Assembly (NCBI GenBank): GCA_965208835.1 | Contig: OZ242358.1 | Location: 576,001-640,000, forward strand | Direction of reading: 5' to 3' | Length of the DNA stretch: 64,000 nt | From: Candidatus Latescibacterota bacterium | Lineage (GTDB): Bacteria > Latescibacterota > UBA2968 > GCA-2709665 | Shown here: in pieces, positions 15,889 to 21,928 of the stretch | How the letters are laid out: the number at the start of each line of letters is the position of its first letter | Numbering within the stretch: position 1 is the stretch's first letter | The notes under the pieces: model-generated | What the model saw: the letters and a program-made list of their open reading frames with translations, nothing else | The model's database searches: none | Told to the model about the DNA's origin: nothing | Program-made: the position numbers and the translations under genes

Positions 15889-16113
15889 TTACGTTCGAAG
15901 GAAGTCTTCCGTCGTTACTCCGGCTTGTTTTAGAATCGAGGCTAATGTACCCTCCGGCAGATCTCCAGAGTGATTGGGAATCGTCGTTCGACGTCGAGTG
16001 ACGGGATTCCACCAAATCTCATGACTGCCTCGTGCGTGTCGGTCAAATGTGAATCCCAACCGCCTCAATCTTCGGATTAACTGTCTATATGTGAAACCCG
16101 CGAGCCGGCCCAT
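15889..16113 (-). CDS. hicA: HicA-family toxin
   Basis: LRRLGF...RHARGSHEIW...TTIPNHSGDLPEGTLASILKQAG. Confidence 0.9.
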   Translation of the reverse strand: MGRLAGFTYRQLIRRLRRLGFTFDRHARGSHEIWWNPVTRRRTTIPNHSGDLPEGTLASILKQAGVTTEDFLRT

Positions 16114-16358
16114 CAAACACCTACGGGAATATCCAACTCCACGACGTCCATATTTATCGCATGCAAACCATCCGGCAGCGGGTCGCCATGTTCCCTGCAG
16201 GATTCGACAAGCTTCCTGGCAACATCTTGAGCGATTTCAACCGTCTCGGCCACTGTTCGTCCCTGCGCCACAAGTCCGTCGAAATCTTCGGAGGTAGCCA
16301 GGAATTGACCGTTTTCTACTCGCCTGATTTGAAGACGAAGCCGGTATTCCACTGACAT
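16113..16358 (-). CDS. hicB: Short HicB-like antitoxin (no DNA-binding domain)
   Basis: LATSEDFDGLVAQGRTVAETVEIAQDV; overlaps hicA start. Confidence 0.8.
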   Translation of the reverse strand: MSVEYRLRLQIRRVENGQFLATSEDFDGLVAQGRTVAETVEIAQDVARKLVESCREHGDPLPDGLHAINMDVVELDIPVGV

Positions 16359-16537: not shown

Positions 16538-19500
16538 CTAAACAATCAGCGCGGTGGCTTTTTCCTTGAGCGCGGGCAGGAGTTCGTCCGCCGCTCGTTC
16601 GAGCGCGGCGAATGCCTCATTCACGTCTTCCAGGTCCCCTACGCGCGCCATGTCTTCCAGCCTCAGCGCCGCCTCCACGGTAGAATTGGCTAGAAACACG
16701 GCCGCCGAGCCCTTCAGCGTGTGCGCCGCGCGCCGCAGCAGGGTGCTGTCGCCGTGGCCGATCGCCCGTTTCATTTCTTCAATGTGCCTGGCGTATTCGG
16801 TAACAAAAAGCCCGGCAAGTTCAGCCAGAATCGCCTCGTTGCCGCCAACCTGCTCCAGCGCACCCTGCCAGTCCAGCGTGCCGTCGTTGGCGACGGGTTC
16901 CGCCGGCGGTGCATCGTCCGATGGGACGTTGTTCTCCACGATATCGTAGAGGTCTCCCGCACGGATGGGTTTGGGGAGATAATCGTCCATCCCCTCTTCC
17001 AGACACCGTTCTCTGTCGCCCTGCATCACGTGGGCCGTCATCGCCGCAATTCGAACGTGCTCGCCCGACGACCGTTCGCCTTCCCTGATAATCCGCGTTG
17101 CCTCCAGCCCGTCCATCTCCGGCATCTGGATATCCATGAGGATCAGATCGAACGTCTCGTTCTCCAGCGCAGCGAGTGCTTCCTTGCCGTTGTTGACGGC
17201 CGTAACCTGATGGCCGCGCGGCTCGAGCAGGTCCACAATCACTTTCCGGTTGACCAGGCCGTCCTCGGCCAACAGGACGCGACGCCTGTCGGCGGGCGGT
17301 ACCGGTTCCAGGATTCTCGGGACGTCCACGGTTTCGACAACGCTTACCTCCAGGGCTTCCAGCGCGGCATCGAGCAGATCGGACTGCTTGACCGGCTTCG
17401 TCAGACTTCGGGCAAGCCCCAACGCGTCACATCGCACGGCGTCGTGGGTTCTTCCAGCCGAAGAAAGAATCAGTATCGGTACATCCTTCGCCGCGGGATC
17501 TTCCCGAAGGCGCTCCGCCAGCGCGAATCCGTCCATATCCGGCATCACCGCGTCCAGAAGAAACAGATTAAACGGCTGATTCGCTTTGCCGGCCCTCCGA
17601 AGCGTGTCGAGCGCCGCCGGACCCGAGTCCGCGACCTCGATATCCATGCCCCAGGTTCCCAGCATCTCCTCAAATATGAACCGGTTTGTACGGTTGTTGT
17701 CCACCACCAGCGCGCGAAGGCCCACCAGGGTCTGCAGGTCGGCCGCGGACCGTTTCGCCAACGGGGGTTGCGCCTCGAAGACTGCCGTAAAATAAAACGA
17801 ACTCCCCTTGTCCGGTTCGCTTTCCACCCACATCCGTCCGCCCATCATCGCGGCGAGCTGCGATGAAATCGCCAGGCCCAGCCCCGTGCCGCCGAACCTC
17901 CTTGAAGTGGAAGAGTCGACCTGGCTGAACGAGTCGAAAATCAATCGCTGATCTTCGGGCGCGATGCCGATGCCCGTGTCGCGCACAAAAAACCTCAGAC
18001 TGACGGTGTCTTCCTCACGGGCGTCCACTTTCACATCGACCAGCACGTCGCCGTTCGCGGTAAACTTGATGGCATTGTCCACCAGGTTGATCACGATCTG
18101 CCTAAGACGGCCGGGGTCGCCGACGAGCCGGTCCGGAACGTCGGGTGCGATATGGCACGCCAACTCCAGTCCCTTTTGCGTTGCTTTGACCGCGAGCGTC
18201 TGCACGGTATCCCCAAGCGTATCCCGGAGGTCGAAGCCGATCGACTCCAGATCCAGCCGGTTCACCTCCAGCTTGGAAAAATCGAGGATATCGTTCAGCA
18301 GCGCCAGCAGCGCCTCGGAAGACTGCCTCGTCAACTTGAGATACTCGCGCTGCTGGGGCGTCAGGTCCGTGTTGCCCAGCAACTCCGTCATCCCCATGAT
18401 GCCGTTCATCGGCGTGCGGATCTCGTGGCTCATATTGGCCAGAAATTCGCTTTTTGCGCGATTCGCCTTCTCCGCGGTGTCTTTTGCCGTCTGCAGCTCC
18501 GCGCCCGAACGCTCCAGGGCGACGGTGCTCGTCTTCAGCGCTTCGTTGGCTTCGCGCTCGGCGGCTGCCGTATTCTCGAGTTGCCGGTTCTTTTCCTGAA
18601 GCTGAATCTCAGCGCGCTTGCGCAGCGTGATATCCCGAACCGTGCCGATCATATGTACGGACTGCCCCGCCCTGTCGCCGAAAATGCGGCCCTTGTTGCC
18701 GAGCCATCGAATCTTCCCGTTCGGCCAGACCACCCGGTGCTCCACTTCAAAGCCCACCCCTTCCTTGATCGTGCGCCGCACCGAGCCGCGGACCATCTCC
18801 CGGTCTTCGGGATGCACGAGTTCGTAGAACGCCTCGCGCGTGCCTTCGAATTCCTCCGGTTTCAGGCCGAACAGCGGCGCTACCAGGTCCGACCATACGA
18901 GTTCTCCGGTGAGCAGATTGGAGTCCCAACTGCCCATATGGGCGGCTTCCATTGCCAGCTTCAGACGGGCTTCACTTTCCCGCAACGCCTCCTCCGAACG
19001 CTTCCGTTCGGAGTCCAGATAAGCGAGCGAGCGGGCGTACCACCAGATCAGGATATTCAGTGCGACGATCACCCCCAGAGAGAACAGCGACATCCCAGAC
19101 TCGAACCCCAATATCACTTCTCCATGAGGCCAGAGCCAGCCCAGCGCCAGTGGAATCAGGAAAGCGGCAGGCAACAGCCGGCGCGCCATTGACCCTCCGG
19201 CCGTCGAACTGACGATTGTGGTGGTCGGTTCAAGGTCTGGCCGGGACAGAAACACACCGATGCACAACAGCCCGAAAGTGAGCGTTGTTACGGCGCTCAT
19301 CTGGAGATCCCAGGTCACTTCTCTCGGGGAAAGCGCCAGGTAAAAGTGTCCGACCGCATAACCGCACGATACGATCGATGCAATAGACAGACACGTCTGC
19401 GCCGGCCAGGCGTTCCCGCGCACCCTGAAATGCCAGAGAAACAGCGCCAGGCCGATCAGCGCGAAGTTACACGCTTCATTGCGCAGCATATGCCCGGCAC

Positions 19501-19810
19501 CCGCGCCGAAACCGATAAACACGGGTCCCGCGCCAATCAGCTCCAGAATCCCGAAGACCACGACGACCGCGGCGATTGCCTTCCCCAGGAACTGCCTGCG
19601 CGCGGAAGACCCGCCGCTACGCAGCAGCCACAGCGCCACGCCGGTGAGTACGAACATGCCAGCCGTCAACAAAGACATCCATTCGGCCACGGGCGCGCTG
19701 ACCAGCCATCCGGAGAATACCAGGATGGACAGCATGACGACGATCAGATTGGCGGTCTGCGCGGCAATCGCGGCGATTCGCACCAGACGCGGGTCTGCGT
19801 AATCGTCCAT
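16538..19810 (-). CDS. Membrane hybrid histidine kinase (TM-PAS-HisKA-HATPase-REC-REC-Hpt)
   Basis: Several TM helices; PAS VHPEDRE; H-box FLANMSHEIRTPMNG; NLVDNAIKFT; DTGIGI; GGTGLGL; two REC domains (LDAVMP, MDIQMP); Hpt AHTLKGS. Confidence 0.95.
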   Translation of the reverse strand: MDDYADPRLVRIAAIAAQTANLIVVMLSILVFSGWLVSAPVAEWMSLLTAGMFVLTGVALWLLRSGGSSARRQFLGKAIAAVVVVFGILELIGAGPVFIGFGAGAGHMLRNEACNFALIGLALFLWHFRVRGNAWPAQTCLSIASIVSCGYAVGHFYLALSPREVTWDLQMSAVTTLTFGLLCIGVFLSRPDLEPTTTIVSSTAGGSMARRLLPAAFLIPLALGWLWPHGEVILGFESGMSLFSLGVIVALNILIWWYARSLAYLDSERKRSEEALRESEARLKLAMEAAHMGSWDSNLLTGELVWSDLVAPLFGLKPEEFEGTREAFYELVHPEDREMVRGSVRRTIKEGVGFEVEHRVVWPNGKIRWLGNKGRIFGDRAGQSVHMIGTVRDITLRKRAEIQLQEKNRQLENTAAAEREANEALKTSTVALERSGAELQTAKDTAEKANRAKSEFLANMSHEIRTPMNGIMGMTELLGNTDLTPQQREYLKLTRQSSEALLALLNDILDFSKLEVNRLDLESIGFDLRDTLGDTVQTLAVKATQKGLELACHIAPDVPDRLVGDPGRLRQIVINLVDNAIKFTANGDVLVDVKVDAREEDTVSLRFFVRDTGIGIAPEDQRLIFDSFSQVDSSTSRRFGGTGLGLAISSQLAAMMGGRMWVESEPDKGSSFYFTAVFEAQPPLAKRSAADLQTLVGLRALVVDNNRTNRFIFEEMLGTWGMDIEVADSGPAALDTLRRAGKANQPFNLFLLDAVMPDMDGFALAERLREDPAAKDVPILILSSAGRTHDAVRCDALGLARSLTKPVKQSDLLDAALEALEVSVVETVDVPRILEPVPPADRRRVLLAEDGLVNRKVIVDLLEPRGHQVTAVNNGKEALAALENETFDLILMDIQMPEMDGLEATRIIREGERSSGEHVRIAAMTAHVMQGDRERCLEEGMDDYLPKPIRAGDLYDIVENNVPSDDAPPAEPVANDGTLDWQGALEQVGGNEAILAELAGLFVTEYARHIEEMKRAIGHGDSTLLRRAAHTLKGSAAVFLANSTVEAALRLEDMARVGDLEDVNEAFAALERAADELLPALKEKATALIV

Positions 19811-19879
19811 TTCAGTGCTTCCTGTCGTTTTGTCCCGGAGACAGTTCGTCGAATGGGAACAAATCCAGGGGACGGGACA

Positions 19880-21529
19880 CTACGGAAACAATCCTCTCAG
19901 GAGTTTCGCCTGGGTCACGCGGTGTATTCCTTCTATCAGCGCTGCGGTGCGTAGATCCAATCCATCGCGTTCGGACCGTTGAGTGGTCCGCTGGAACGCG
20001 TTGAGCAGAATCTGCCTGAGTCGATCGTTGATCTCCTCCAGCGTCCACATATAATTCTGCGTGTCCTGTACCCACTCGAAATAGGAAACCGTAACCCCTC
20101 CGGCATTGCCGAGTACATCAGGCAGAATGAACACGCCTCTTTCCTGCAGGATCTCATCCGCTTCCAGGGTTGTGGGTCCATTGGCGCCCTCGGCCAGGAT
20201 TCTGCACGAGATCCTCTCCGCGTTGTCGGCGCTGATCTGATTCTGTATCGCGGCGGGAACGAGTACGTCGCAGGGCAATTCCAGCAATTCCCGGTTGCTC
20301 ACGGCGTCCCCGCCCTTATATCCTTCCAGAACCCGGTTATCATCCACGTGACGCAGCAGCGAATCCACGCTCAGACCATCGGGATTGTAAATGCCGGTGG
20401 TCACGTCGCTTACGCCCACAACCCGGACGCCGCAGGCCTCGAGGAATCTCGCCGCGCTGCTTCCCACGTTTCCGAATCCCTGGACGACGGCGGTCGCGCC
20501 GCTCAAATCCATACCAAGATGTCTGGCCGCTTCTTCAACCAGATACACCAACCCCCGTCCCGTCGCTTCGCGGCGGCCTTCGGAGCCGCCAAGCACAACC
20601 GGCTTGCCGGTCACGACCGCGGGCACTGTATGACCCATCTGATGGCTGTACGTGTCCATCATCCACGCCATCACGTTTTCGTCCGTGCCCATGTCCGGCG
20701 CGGGGATGTCCTTCTGCGGTCCGATAACGTCGATGATCTCAGACGTATACCGGCGCGTCAGGCGCTGCAGTTCGCGACGGGAGAGCACGGTTGGATCAAT
20801 GCGCACGCCGCCCTTGGCGCCGCCGAACGGGAGGTCCATCAGGGCGCACTTCCAGGTCATCCACATGGCCAGGGCGGTAACCTCGCCCAGGTTCACGTCG
20901 TGATGGTAGCGGACGCCGCCTTTCGTGGGCCCCATCGTCAACAGATGTTGAATCCGATAGCCGGCAACCGTCTCCACGTATCTGTGCTCGTCCCGCCGGA
21001 ACGGAAAGGTGACCACGTGGGTGCGCTGTGGAAACAGCAGCCGCTGCCGGATGTTATCGTCCAGCCCCATCAGGTGGGCGGCCTTCAGGAACTGCTGCTG
21101 TGCCAGGCGGAACATCGGCGATTCCCACTCGGCGTGCTGCGCCCGGCTGCGTTCCACGGCGTATCGGATCGACCTCACCAGAAGCGGGCTGTCCAGCTGG
21201 GATTTTACCAGATAGTCCTGCGCTCCCGCCTCAACCGCCCGTGCGGCCAGTTTGATGTCCTCCACGCCGGAGAGGATGACAACGGTCAGGTCCGGATACG
21301 CGGCGCGCACACGCAGGTATGTTTCGAGTTCCTCGCTGTCCGGCAGTACCAGGTCCAGCAGCAACAATTCGTATCCGTCCGCCGCAAGCCGATTGAGCCC
21401 TTCCGCGAGCGTACCCGCCGAATCCACCTCGAATTCGGGGCCCTCGGATTTGGCAAGCAGTTCCTGAATCAGACGGCTGTGAAGCGGATTGTCCTCAATC
21501 AACAGCGTTTTCAGCTGTGTGCCTGGCAT
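19880..21529 (-). CDS. Receiver domain fused to Glu/Leu/Phe/Val (glutamate) dehydrogenase
   Basis: REC: IEDNP, LLDLVLPD, VILSG, QDYLVK. GDH: GPTKGGVRY, MTWK...GGAKGG, DIPAPD, GKP...ATGRG, QGFGNVG, NAGGVTVSYFEW. Confidence 0.93.
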   Translation of the reverse strand: MPGTQLKTLLIEDNPLHSRLIQELLAKSEGPEFEVDSAGTLAEGLNRLAADGYELLLLDLVLPDSEELETYLRVRAAYPDLTVVILSGVEDIKLAARAVEAGAQDYLVKSQLDSPLLVRSIRYAVERSRAQHAEWESPMFRLAQQQFLKAAHLMGLDDNIRQRLLFPQRTHVVTFPFRRDEHRYVETVAGYRIQHLLTMGPTKGGVRYHHDVNLGEVTALAMWMTWKCALMDLPFGGAKGGVRIDPTVLSRRELQRLTRRYTSEIIDVIGPQKDIPAPDMGTDENVMAWMMDTYSHQMGHTVPAVVTGKPVVLGGSEGRREATGRGLVYLVEEAARHLGMDLSGATAVVQGFGNVGSSAARFLEACGVRVVGVSDVTTGIYNPDGLSVDSLLRHVDDNRVLEGYKGGDAVSNRELLELPCDVLVPAAIQNQISADNAERISCRILAEGANGPTTLEADEILQERGVFILPDVLGNAGGVTVSYFEWVQDTQNYMWTLEEINDRLRQILLNAFQRTTQRSERDGLDLRTAALIEGIHRVTQAKLLRGLFP

Positions 21530-21728
21530 AGTCCCATCGTCTGCGACTGGCGCGATTCAAGATGTGAGGGTGTACATCGGATATTTAGTCCTATTGCCGA
21601 TACGAGTCAAGTCCAACGCGCTGCAAGAGGCGCATTTATGCGATTTGTTGCGGTATTTCCCGTCGAAACGGCAAGGGATGTTTCAATGCCCTCCTTGATT
21701 TCATCACGAAACCGATCCCAAGGATTTA

Positions 21729-21890
21729 GAAGCTGTCTTAAGATTCCCAGCGGTCTTCGCGCGGCTGCAAAAGCGCCGGTCGGCGTTGGTCAAACCCACC
21801 CGTATAGACAAATAGGGGCGGGTTTTCCCGCCTTGACCGCTACTTTTTCGCTCGCGCTCGGGAACTCACCGGAAATTTTAAGACAACTTC
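21729..21890. mobile_element. 162-bp MITE-like element with TTA target duplication
   Basis: TIRs GAAGCTGTCTTAAGATTCCC and GGAAATTTTAAGACAACTTC (17/20 match); TTA at 21726-21728 and 21891-21893; no transposase. Confidence 0.75.
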
Positions 21891-21928
21891 TTAGACGAAT
21901 AGACCGGTTTCGGGTTGCACGTTATCCT

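Follow-up and report, generated by a model that had tools for sequence, protein, structure and literature searches.

The stretch analysed here (the window) comprises 64,000 nucleotides of a Candidatus Latescibacterota genome (contig OZ242358.1, positions 576,001 to 640,000). Two adjacent genes on its reverse (-) strand are the subject of this report. One of them encodes a protein of 549 residues, REC-GDH (19880..21529), in which a receiver domain is fused to a glutamate dehydrogenase (GDH); it is recognized by the open reading frame (ORF) call, Pfam and a structure match. The other encodes a hybrid (unorthodox) histidine kinase of 1090 residues (16538..19810) with the Pfam architecture TM-PAS-HisKA-HATPase-REC-REC-Hpt (TM, transmembrane). 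The genes are separated by 69 bp (19811..19879). No terminator-like match was found inside this gap, and a promoter scan gave no signal above chance. An earlier, sequence-only reading of the window had described a complete fusion whose stop lies 69 bp from a co-oriented kinase, and this description is borne out by the Pfam domains and key residues. It is also true, as was claimed, that the window has no other response regulator. Its three receiver matches are the kinase's two and the fusion's one, and the host genome, with 24 such matches, holds 21 others. Together they make up a two-gene cassette that is real, ancient and portable.

The host genome is a single contig of 5.18 Mb and is 97.8% complete. 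REC-GDH is the only small GDH in it, and a search of the genome for a large GDH found none. The Hpt domain of the kinase is the only one in the genome, and both glutamine synthetase (GS) and glutamate synthase (GOGAT) are encoded. The fusion is no assembly artefact. The sequence-only reading had allowed for a fusion that is absent from related genomes or unsupported by reads; it is present in all 14 other members of the genus, and independent contigs from three of four sequencing runs (X1, X5 and X9) span the receiver-GDH junction unbroken, with no indel listed. A single X9 contig covers the kinase and the C-terminal half of the GDH, and run X1 may be the genome's source sample. Sponge and marine metagenomes are among the runs that match parts of it, and no RNA run is listed among those runs.

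The fused receiver and dehydrogenase

The receiver domain spans residues 5-125 (21155..21517), with the phospho-acceptor D59 encoded at 21353-21355. Its Pfam match (PF00072, Response_reg, residues 9-111, E 2e-15) exceeds the cut-off, and the predicted fold contains five strands and five helices within residues 6-136, i.e., (beta-alpha)5. The receiver residues E12, D13, D59 (in LLDLVLP), S87 and K109 are all present. A look at the domain architecture had been proposed as a check, and all 120 homologues listed (69-96% identity, 539-566 residues) have the same three Pfam domains. E12, D13, D59 and K109 are each conserved in 120/120 of these, and 119 have T or S at position 87. Within its own genus, the ratio of non-synonymous to synonymous substitution (dN/dS) of the receiver is 0.125, and the values over all domains of both genes lie between 0.055 and 0.142.

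The stretch from K109 to W135 (21125..21205) is a linker of fixed length, in which helix alpha5 (114-136) reaches helix alpha1 of the GDH. Its spacing is 26 residues in 147/147 aligned sequences; the receiver loops vary in length.

GDH domains I and II follow at residues 136-549 (19883..21124), with Pfam matches to ELFV_dehydrog_N (167-296) and ELFV_dehydrog (314-546). The GDH motifs GPTKGG (K203), MTWK (K227), GGAKGG (K239), APD (D279) and GFGNVG are retained. K203, K227, K239, D279, V479 and S482 are each found in 120/120 of the homologues listed, and the GDH aligns to that of Thermotoga maritima; we take these residues to have the glutamate-binding and catalytic roles of their equivalents in solved GDHs. 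A Foldseek match to the T. maritima enzyme (1B26; E 7e-46, target TM-score 0.92) points to the two-domain GDH fold with its GxGxxG site. Thus, as far as the sequence can tell, both the receiver and the GDH of the window's protein are intact.

The coenzyme motif is S374-D375-V376; of 147 aligned sequences, 140 carry V, A, M or L at position 376. Elsewhere, the motif reads SDSRG in T. maritima, SDTKG in the Thermococcus-type 1BVU and SDAYG in the NAD-specific Bacillus enzyme (NAD, nicotinamide adenine dinucleotide). According to a study on Arabidopsis GDH1, a hydrophobic residue following SD marks NAD preference (PMC7326016). By its SDV motif, the GDH of the fusion is probably NAD-type.

The hybrid kinase

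The kinase begins with a membrane sensor region (approximately residues 15-262; 19025..19768), which is defined by hydropathy and matches no Pfam family. A simple hydropathy cut-off gives five hydrophobic segments within residues 23-250. It is followed by a PAS domain (residues 282-399; 18614..18967; PAS_3 at 304-391), HisKA with H462 and HATPase_c (17786..18457; residues 452-515 and 564-675), two internal receivers with D753 and D893 (16937..17713) and the Hpt domain with H1030 (16580..16822; residues 997-1077), the genome's only PF01627 match. The relay residues H462, D753, D893 and H1030 are thus all present. Among 73 aligned kinases, H462 is found in 72, D753 in 69, D893 in 73 and H1030 in 59; where H1030 is missing, most rows have no fused Hpt or stop at a contig edge.

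The membrane region is a possible undescribed membrane sensor domain. Its nearest Atlas clusters are unnamed hypothetical proteins with scores of 0.94 and 0.91, and MASE3, at only 0.83, is a lead. The clusters resembling it hold 74-204 hypothetical proteins each, with scores of 0.87-0.94.

Distribution and ancestry of the fusion

The named sources of the listed homologues are Planctomycetales, Ca. Latescibacteria, Gemmatimonadota, Amphritea, Pontibacterium, Cribrihabitans and Roseiconus. Later searches added Halomonas, Zobellella, Sinorhizobium, Ensifer, Leisingera and Nitrococcus, and the cultured carriers include Sinorhizobium fredii NGR234, with the pair on pNGR234b at about 1,463,435-1,468,092 as locus L208, and Halomonas. 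In its own phylum, the fusion is found in 23 of 168 genomes, the 14 of the genus included. Sampling around a Planctomycetota locus gave 6 carriers among the 401 genomes of its phylum, sampling around a Gemmatimonadota locus gave 1 (a truncated copy) among 301 of its phylum, and the class of Pleionea gave none among 391; these three counts are floors, as few candidates per genome were scored. The distribution is patchy across several phyla.

A tree of 159 GDH domains groups the fusions into a single clade with a Shimodaira-Hasegawa-like approximate likelihood ratio (SH-aLRT) support of 99. This was a quick search with a midpoint root, and the sampling is biased by the junction motif used to collect the sequences. 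The deepest branch of the clade is fused and five receiver-less members are nested inside, which suggests that the receiver was probably gained once and then lost again. These five GDHs (L005:281-1579, L115:2091-3389, L119:5800-7125, L133:213-1562 and L161:6953-8236) keep the EWD-PMF junction, none of them has an adjacent kinase, and they offer natural controls for the receiver's effect.

Among longer proteins, it is those of the PAS-kinase, GGDEF/EAL and HD type whose receivers are closest; they have the alpha5 helix 'R.IRYAIER' in common with REC-GDH. A kinase and GDH in a single chain was also looked for; a GDH domain occurs in 0 of 92 longer matches, which is weak evidence. A scan of the genome collection by full alignment hit generic GDH motifs; of the 80 loci that it gave, 2 are fusions, and the remaining 78 were used as unfused control and outgroup. 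One apparent fusion (L027, match 6-540) was rejected, as it is a plain GDH beside a separate regulator.

Pairing of kinase and receiver

A kinase, Hpt or kinase-membrane-region gene lies within 600 bp on the same strand at 61 of 97 fusion loci. Another 11 have no such neighbour despite at least 2 kb on either side, and the remaining 25 have too little flanking sequence for a verdict (23, 10 and 13, respectively, at 90% clustering). Thus, the synteny with hybrid kinases, which the sequence-only reading had put forward for checking, is found at 61 of the 72 informative loci. The unfused control is positive at 1 of 86 loci, and this one (L130) is a frameshifted fusion. The order of the genes varies, with the kinase either upstream or downstream of REC-GDH; a separate Hpt gene directly precedes REC-GDH in 9 of 78 metagenome loci, and on Sinorhizobium/Ensifer plasmids the kinase is immediately downstream in all four loci examined (of nine records). 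No third gene near the cassette is shared across lineages, beyond single ones. The GDH and kinase distances are correlated (Mantel r 0.48, 19 dereplicated pairs, 0 of 5000 permutations higher), with the reservation that kin are not independent.

The sensors of the kinases are diverse. Among 29 examined, they include the Pfam-less membrane region with or without PAS, CHASE, dCache-HAMP-PAS-PAS, MHYT, YfiR-like, beta-propeller and PAS arrays, and such swapping suggests a reusable 'signal to nitrogen flux' module. The membrane signal proposed earlier therefore fits this copy of the kinase but does not extend to the family, as the sensors differ between lineages. An ammonium-transporter sensor was looked for and was not found.

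Upstream of the cassette in Ensifer adhaerens (L209:1-7275; one case), genes for methylaspartate mutase, methylaspartate ammonia-lyase, CoA-transferase, CoA-ester lyase and fumarate hydratase are present. This gene set is a methylaspartate glutamate-catabolism cluster. The pair of E. adhaerens is represented by WP_275027555.1 and WP_275027556.1.

Synteny, co-divergence and the conservation of residues all speak strongly for the wiring of kinase to receiver, and the pairing is strengthened further by the dead GDHs and lone receivers discussed below. This kinase, through its Hpt domain, very probably feeds this receiver.

Structure models and proposed mechanism

In the structure model of REC-GDH (predicted local distance difference test, pLDDT, 87.6; predicted template modelling score, pTM, 0.80), helix 114-136 abuts helix 138-154. 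A homodimer model of residues 4-340 scores 0.49, the best control being 0.00; 20 of 30 solved homodimers attain the mark used, as does 1 of 23 single chains. The runs agree in at least 53% of contacts, with a pLDDT of at least 75. Such a pass is expected from the likeness to solved GDH dimers, and the model reproduces their known two-fold strand-strand contact (165-176). In it, the linker residues 133-136 touch residues 213-215 of the partner, at the start of the K227-bearing helix. In Arabidopsis GDH1, the N-terminal helix is reported to bend between the open and closed states (PMC7326016).

It is proposed that an input at the membrane region or PAS domain would lead to autophosphorylation of the kinase at H462. 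The phosphate would then move to an internal receiver (D753 and/or D893), to H1030 of the Hpt domain and finally to D59 of REC-GDH. This route is inferred from family knowledge and synteny, and all the residues for it are present. The state of D59 may be relayed via the fixed-length helix, alpha5 extended up to W135, to GDH helix alpha1 and the two-fold interface, and the receiver could thus alter the activity or the assembly of a probably NAD-dependent, catabolic GDH. The most likely purpose would be to toggle glutamate oxidation without new gene expression and to avoid a futile cycle with ammonium assimilation by GS-GOGAT. In a cell with GS-GOGAT, the most likely role of an NAD-type GDH is a catabolic one, and such an enzyme would at times need to be shut off. 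The receiver-less members of the clade match the fusions at every catalytic position, so the receiver is more likely to be a brake in one of its states than an obligatory activator.

On balance, it is slightly more likely than not that phosphorylation controls the activity of the GDH. If so, the glutamate/2-oxoglutarate node would come under rapid control by a phosphorelay whose last member is GDH. The direct switching of GDH flux by the relay, as put forward by the sequence-only reading, is plausible. As the whole account of the system it falls short, because the receiver outlives GDH catalysis, and the receiver and kinase together are retained where the locus has no GDH.

Receivers without an active enzyme

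Several observations weigh against the proposed mechanism. As to the kinase, 11 of the 72 informative fusion loci have none nearby, and all eight distinct kinase-less receivers that were aligned are intact at the key residues. Five similar kinases from loci without REC-GDH, where they sit beside other regulators (including REC-HATPase_c_2 and receivers without a further Pfam match), fall among the partner kinases in a fast tree. The kinases beside REC-GDH are thus no exclusive clade. As to the structure, the dimer model has no confident receiver-receiver or receiver-body contact, and E134, W135 and G215 are shared with unfused sister GDHs (present in 5, 4 and 6 of 6, respectively). The linker contact is, therefore, older than the fusion, and the receiver would have been grafted onto an existing contact.

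There are also fusions whose enzyme is catalytically dead. Eight (representatives at 50% identity) lack the catalytic lysines or D279, and several of these also lack GxGxxG and domain II blocks. A set of 105 sequences, assembled so as to be rich in such forms, has 19 in which two or more of the four catalytic residues are missing, and all 19 keep E12, D13, D59, T87, K109, Y123 and the 26-residue linker. The dead forms fall in at least four separate places in a fast tree of the receiver and helices alpha1-2. In Halomonas salifodinae/pacifica, the receiver of the dead form shares 84% identity with that of its nearest intact relative, but most of its GDH shares 45-58%, whereas intact pairs at that receiver identity average 91% over the GDH.

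Finally, the receiver also occurs with no GDH at its locus. In the genus g25, of the window's own class, a receiver of about 125 residues, 44-55% identical to that of the window, is present in 29 of 31 genomes. At 10/10 loci examined it stands beside the kinase, with no remnant of the GDH. It ends at helix alpha5, 1-2 bp before the called kinase start in eight of the ten loci, and the frames overlap in the other two. Its dN/dS is 0.135 versus 0.125 for the fused receiver, which indicates purifying selection. It groups among the fusion receivers in a poorly resolved tree. If GDH catalysis were the sole output, the receiver and kinase would be predicted to decay; both are kept, so the receiver must have a catalysis-independent role in at least some lineages. 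The dead and lone-receiver derivatives thus pose the question of what job a His-Asp-His-Asp relay has when its last protein is without a visible output.

Some candidates and single cases belong here. Decayed receivers in kinase-less fusions were considered and rejected with the 8/8 intact receivers above; a degenerate-looking one, L004, fell below the cut-off. One kinase-less fusion (L180:5099-6748, G154) sits on a long branch for its GDH (0.77) and is altered in the receiver helix, possibly an incipient decay. The dead fusions are represented by P0273, P0274, P0275, P0276, P0277, P0279, P0286 and P0308 with their relatives, and include those of the cultured Halomonas salifodinae and Bisbaumannia pacifica; WP_146803861.1 and WP_346060975.1 are examples of dead forms. 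The g25 loci with lone receiver and kinase are L188-L195, L203 and L204. A split fusion with the GDH nearby was rejected as their explanation, as a remnant is found in 0 of 12 loci (10 of g25 and 2 of g24). The two g24 loci have a lone receiver without a kinase (L198:5832-6308 and L202:6714-7130), and their similar neighbouring genes suggest stepwise loss. Three loci were kept out of the count of lone receivers: L197 is a fusion truncated close to the end of its contig, and L100 and L144 are apparently frameshifted.

Alternative explanations

One wider reading is conceivable. REC-GDH may be a two-way coupling of the phosphorelay and the carbon-nitrogen branch point, in which phosphorylation switches the hexameric enzyme by way of a rigid helix at the subunit interface and the enzyme's open or closed state feeds back, the signalling half being repeatedly kept alone as a receiver-pseudoenzyme or a lone receiver. 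This is advanced tentatively, at about one chance in four by our own reckoning. If true, central nitrogen metabolism would be switched directly by a two-component system, and literature searches found no precedent for this.

The survival of the receiver on dead GDHs or alone makes a role as sink, scaffold or sensor a serious rival to control of the enzyme. In the strongest such alternative, which is nevertheless unlikely, the flow is reversed: REC-GDH would be a phosphate sink or a feedback input, and the real output would be another regulator elsewhere. Occupancy of the GDH by glutamate, 2-oxoglutarate or NAD(H), through its open and closed states, would tune the uptake or loss of phosphate at D59, and a receiver without GDH would be a constitutive sink. 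Besides the receivers kept on dead GDHs and alone, this agrees with the kinase found 2-3 kb from the lone receiver, on the same contig and strand, in 28 of the 29 g25 genomes that have one. In a rough check, several other receiver regulators of the host genome (sigma-54 activators, REC-SpoIIE) were without a same-strand kinase neighbour, and a rigid link to helix alpha1 would transmit either way. However, the dead GDHs lost their substrate and coenzyme sites first, with only 34% of the invariant active-site positions left in eight representatives, and so the domain is no glutamate sensor in those forms. Nor is a second regulator conserved near the cassette, and in the intact members among the 120 homologues the GDH domains (83% and 73% mean identity) are better conserved than the receiver (54%). 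Four single-chain GAF-(PAS)-kinase-receiver-winged-helix regulators were also noted in the host genome, at approximately 939000, 1248000, 2378000 and 4410000 (L217-L219 and L222).

In a somewhat less probable alternative, the output of the receiver is a protein contact. The GDH dimer or hexamer would present receivers in a fixed geometry, dead versions would join or bind an active GDH as the Thermus GdhA does, and the activity of the intact fusion would be little affected by phosphorylation. GdhA is described as a catalytically inactive regulatory subunit (PMC9570180). The pattern of loss is in keeping with this. The eight dead representatives keep 95% of the invariant positions in the receiver and 71% at the predicted two-fold interface, against 47% in the rest of the GDH and the 34% at the active site; an interface retention of 71% was reached by 6 of 10,000 random position sets, the positions and lineages not being independent. 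Moreover, the dead forms are long open frames (428-555 residues), their Halomonas cluster is conserved (15 members, with the GDH 95% identical among the eight compared), and the model of a dead form has a GDH-like fold (pLDDT 81). On the other hand, its linker helix is broken and of low confidence in that model (a 6-sequence alignment), and the dead forms are known here from protein sequences alone, which leaves a partner GDH or neighbouring kinase hypothetical. A lone receiver, in turn, cannot join a hexamer, and the GDHs of g25 are only 42-44% identical.

Much less probably, the receiver is phosphorylated mainly by an unlinked kinase or by acetyl phosphate, and the neighbouring kinase is merely co-inherited. 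The 11 informative loci without an adjacent kinase, the intact receivers aligned from kinase-less fusions and the two g24 loci would be expected in that case. Against this, the adjacency outlasts changes in gene order, sensor swaps, splitting of the Hpt and loss of the GDH, and this Hpt is the only one of the host genome. That the fusion is vestigial or artefactual, with no role in signalling, is hardly credible: the receiver is lost in at least five loci nested in the clade, but its residues E12, D13, D59 and K109 are invariant in 120/120, its dN/dS is low as given above and independent contigs cross the junction.

Control of the GDH by phosphorylation thus remains the preferred reading, together with a further role of the receiver in some lineages. 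The fusion is testable in cultured strains, namely with the pair of S. fredii NGR234 and with Halomonas, a single cultured group in which intact and dead variants occur naturally.

Surroundings of the cassette

About 200 bp upstream of REC-GDH lies a long-hairpin element of 168 bp (21726-21893), which resembles a miniature inverted-repeat transposable element (MITE) or a repetitive extragenic palindromic (REP) sequence. Of its 169 blastn matches in the genome, 98 extend over 120 bp or more; the best copies are 93-96% identical, and the contig depth is very high. Just downstream of the kinase (15889-16358, (-) strand), there is an ORF for a HicA-family toxin (15889-16116; PF07927) and a preceding ORF of 81 residues without a Pfam match, which presumably is HicB-like.

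Comparison with known systems

The sequence-only reading had supposed that surveys may list such fusions, and this is so. In Table 1 of P2CS (2009), EC (Enzyme Commission) number 1.4.1.3 is given as 'Probable' among the enzyme activities of two-component proteins (PMC2716373), and Galperin et al. (2018) state that receivers occur on standard metabolic enzymes (PMC5847659). The word 'dehydrogenase' is absent from the main text of the latter, and the covered parts of both catalogues do not describe the partner kinase, the spread or the mechanism of the GDH fusion. No experimental study of a REC-GDH fusion was found in literature searches aimed at it; Galperin 2006 and 2010 may list it. The architecture is, therefore, already catalogued.

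BarA, TorS and ArcB have the same HisKA-HATPase-REC-Hpt relay and are among the best NCBIfam matches of the kinase, all below the cut-offs. The window's kinase differs from them in its two internal receivers, in its interchangeable sensors and in having a partner that is no transcription factor.

The small hexameric GDHs (T. maritima 1B26, Thermus GdhB 3AOE, B. subtilis GudB/RocG 3K8Z and 7MFM, and Arabidopsis GDH1) are 44-53% identical to the dehydrogenase half, with a target TM-score of up to 0.94, and the catalytic residues are kept in both. The equivalents of the Thermus leucine site, R259/R260, D292 and R545, are invariant in alignment A1, with a mapping that is uncertain by one residue. 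No solved chain matches the receiver and GDH in one stretch. The known controls of small GDHs are allosteric ligands and partner proteins (GdhA; glutamate synthase, by the title of 7MFM), and not an aspartyl phosphorelay. Phosphorylation on Ser/Thr is another known control of GDH. For the dead relatives of REC-GDH, GdhA of Thermus thermophilus is a ready model, with catalytic residues lost and the subunit interface preferentially kept. The window's protein, unlike GdhA, is intact in its catalytic residues and carries a receiver.

Response regulators with an enzyme as output are well known, such as CheB (REC-methylesterase), PleD and WspR (REC-GGDEF) and RpfG (REC-HD-GYP), and those characterised mostly act on signalling molecules. 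Like them, REC-GDH has a phosphorylatable receiver at the N-terminus of a catalytic domain. Unlike CheB, PleD, WspR and RpfG, its output is a central metabolic oxidoreductase, presumably hexameric, and no signalling enzyme; it also has natural dead-enzyme and lone-receiver derivatives. In CheB, the receiver occludes the active site via a flexible linker. The linker of REC-GDH is not of this type, being fixed in length, helical in the model and ending at the subunit interface. Thus, judged by its sequence, REC-GDH would be an enzyme-output response regulator in architecture and a small GDH in sequence and predicted fold.

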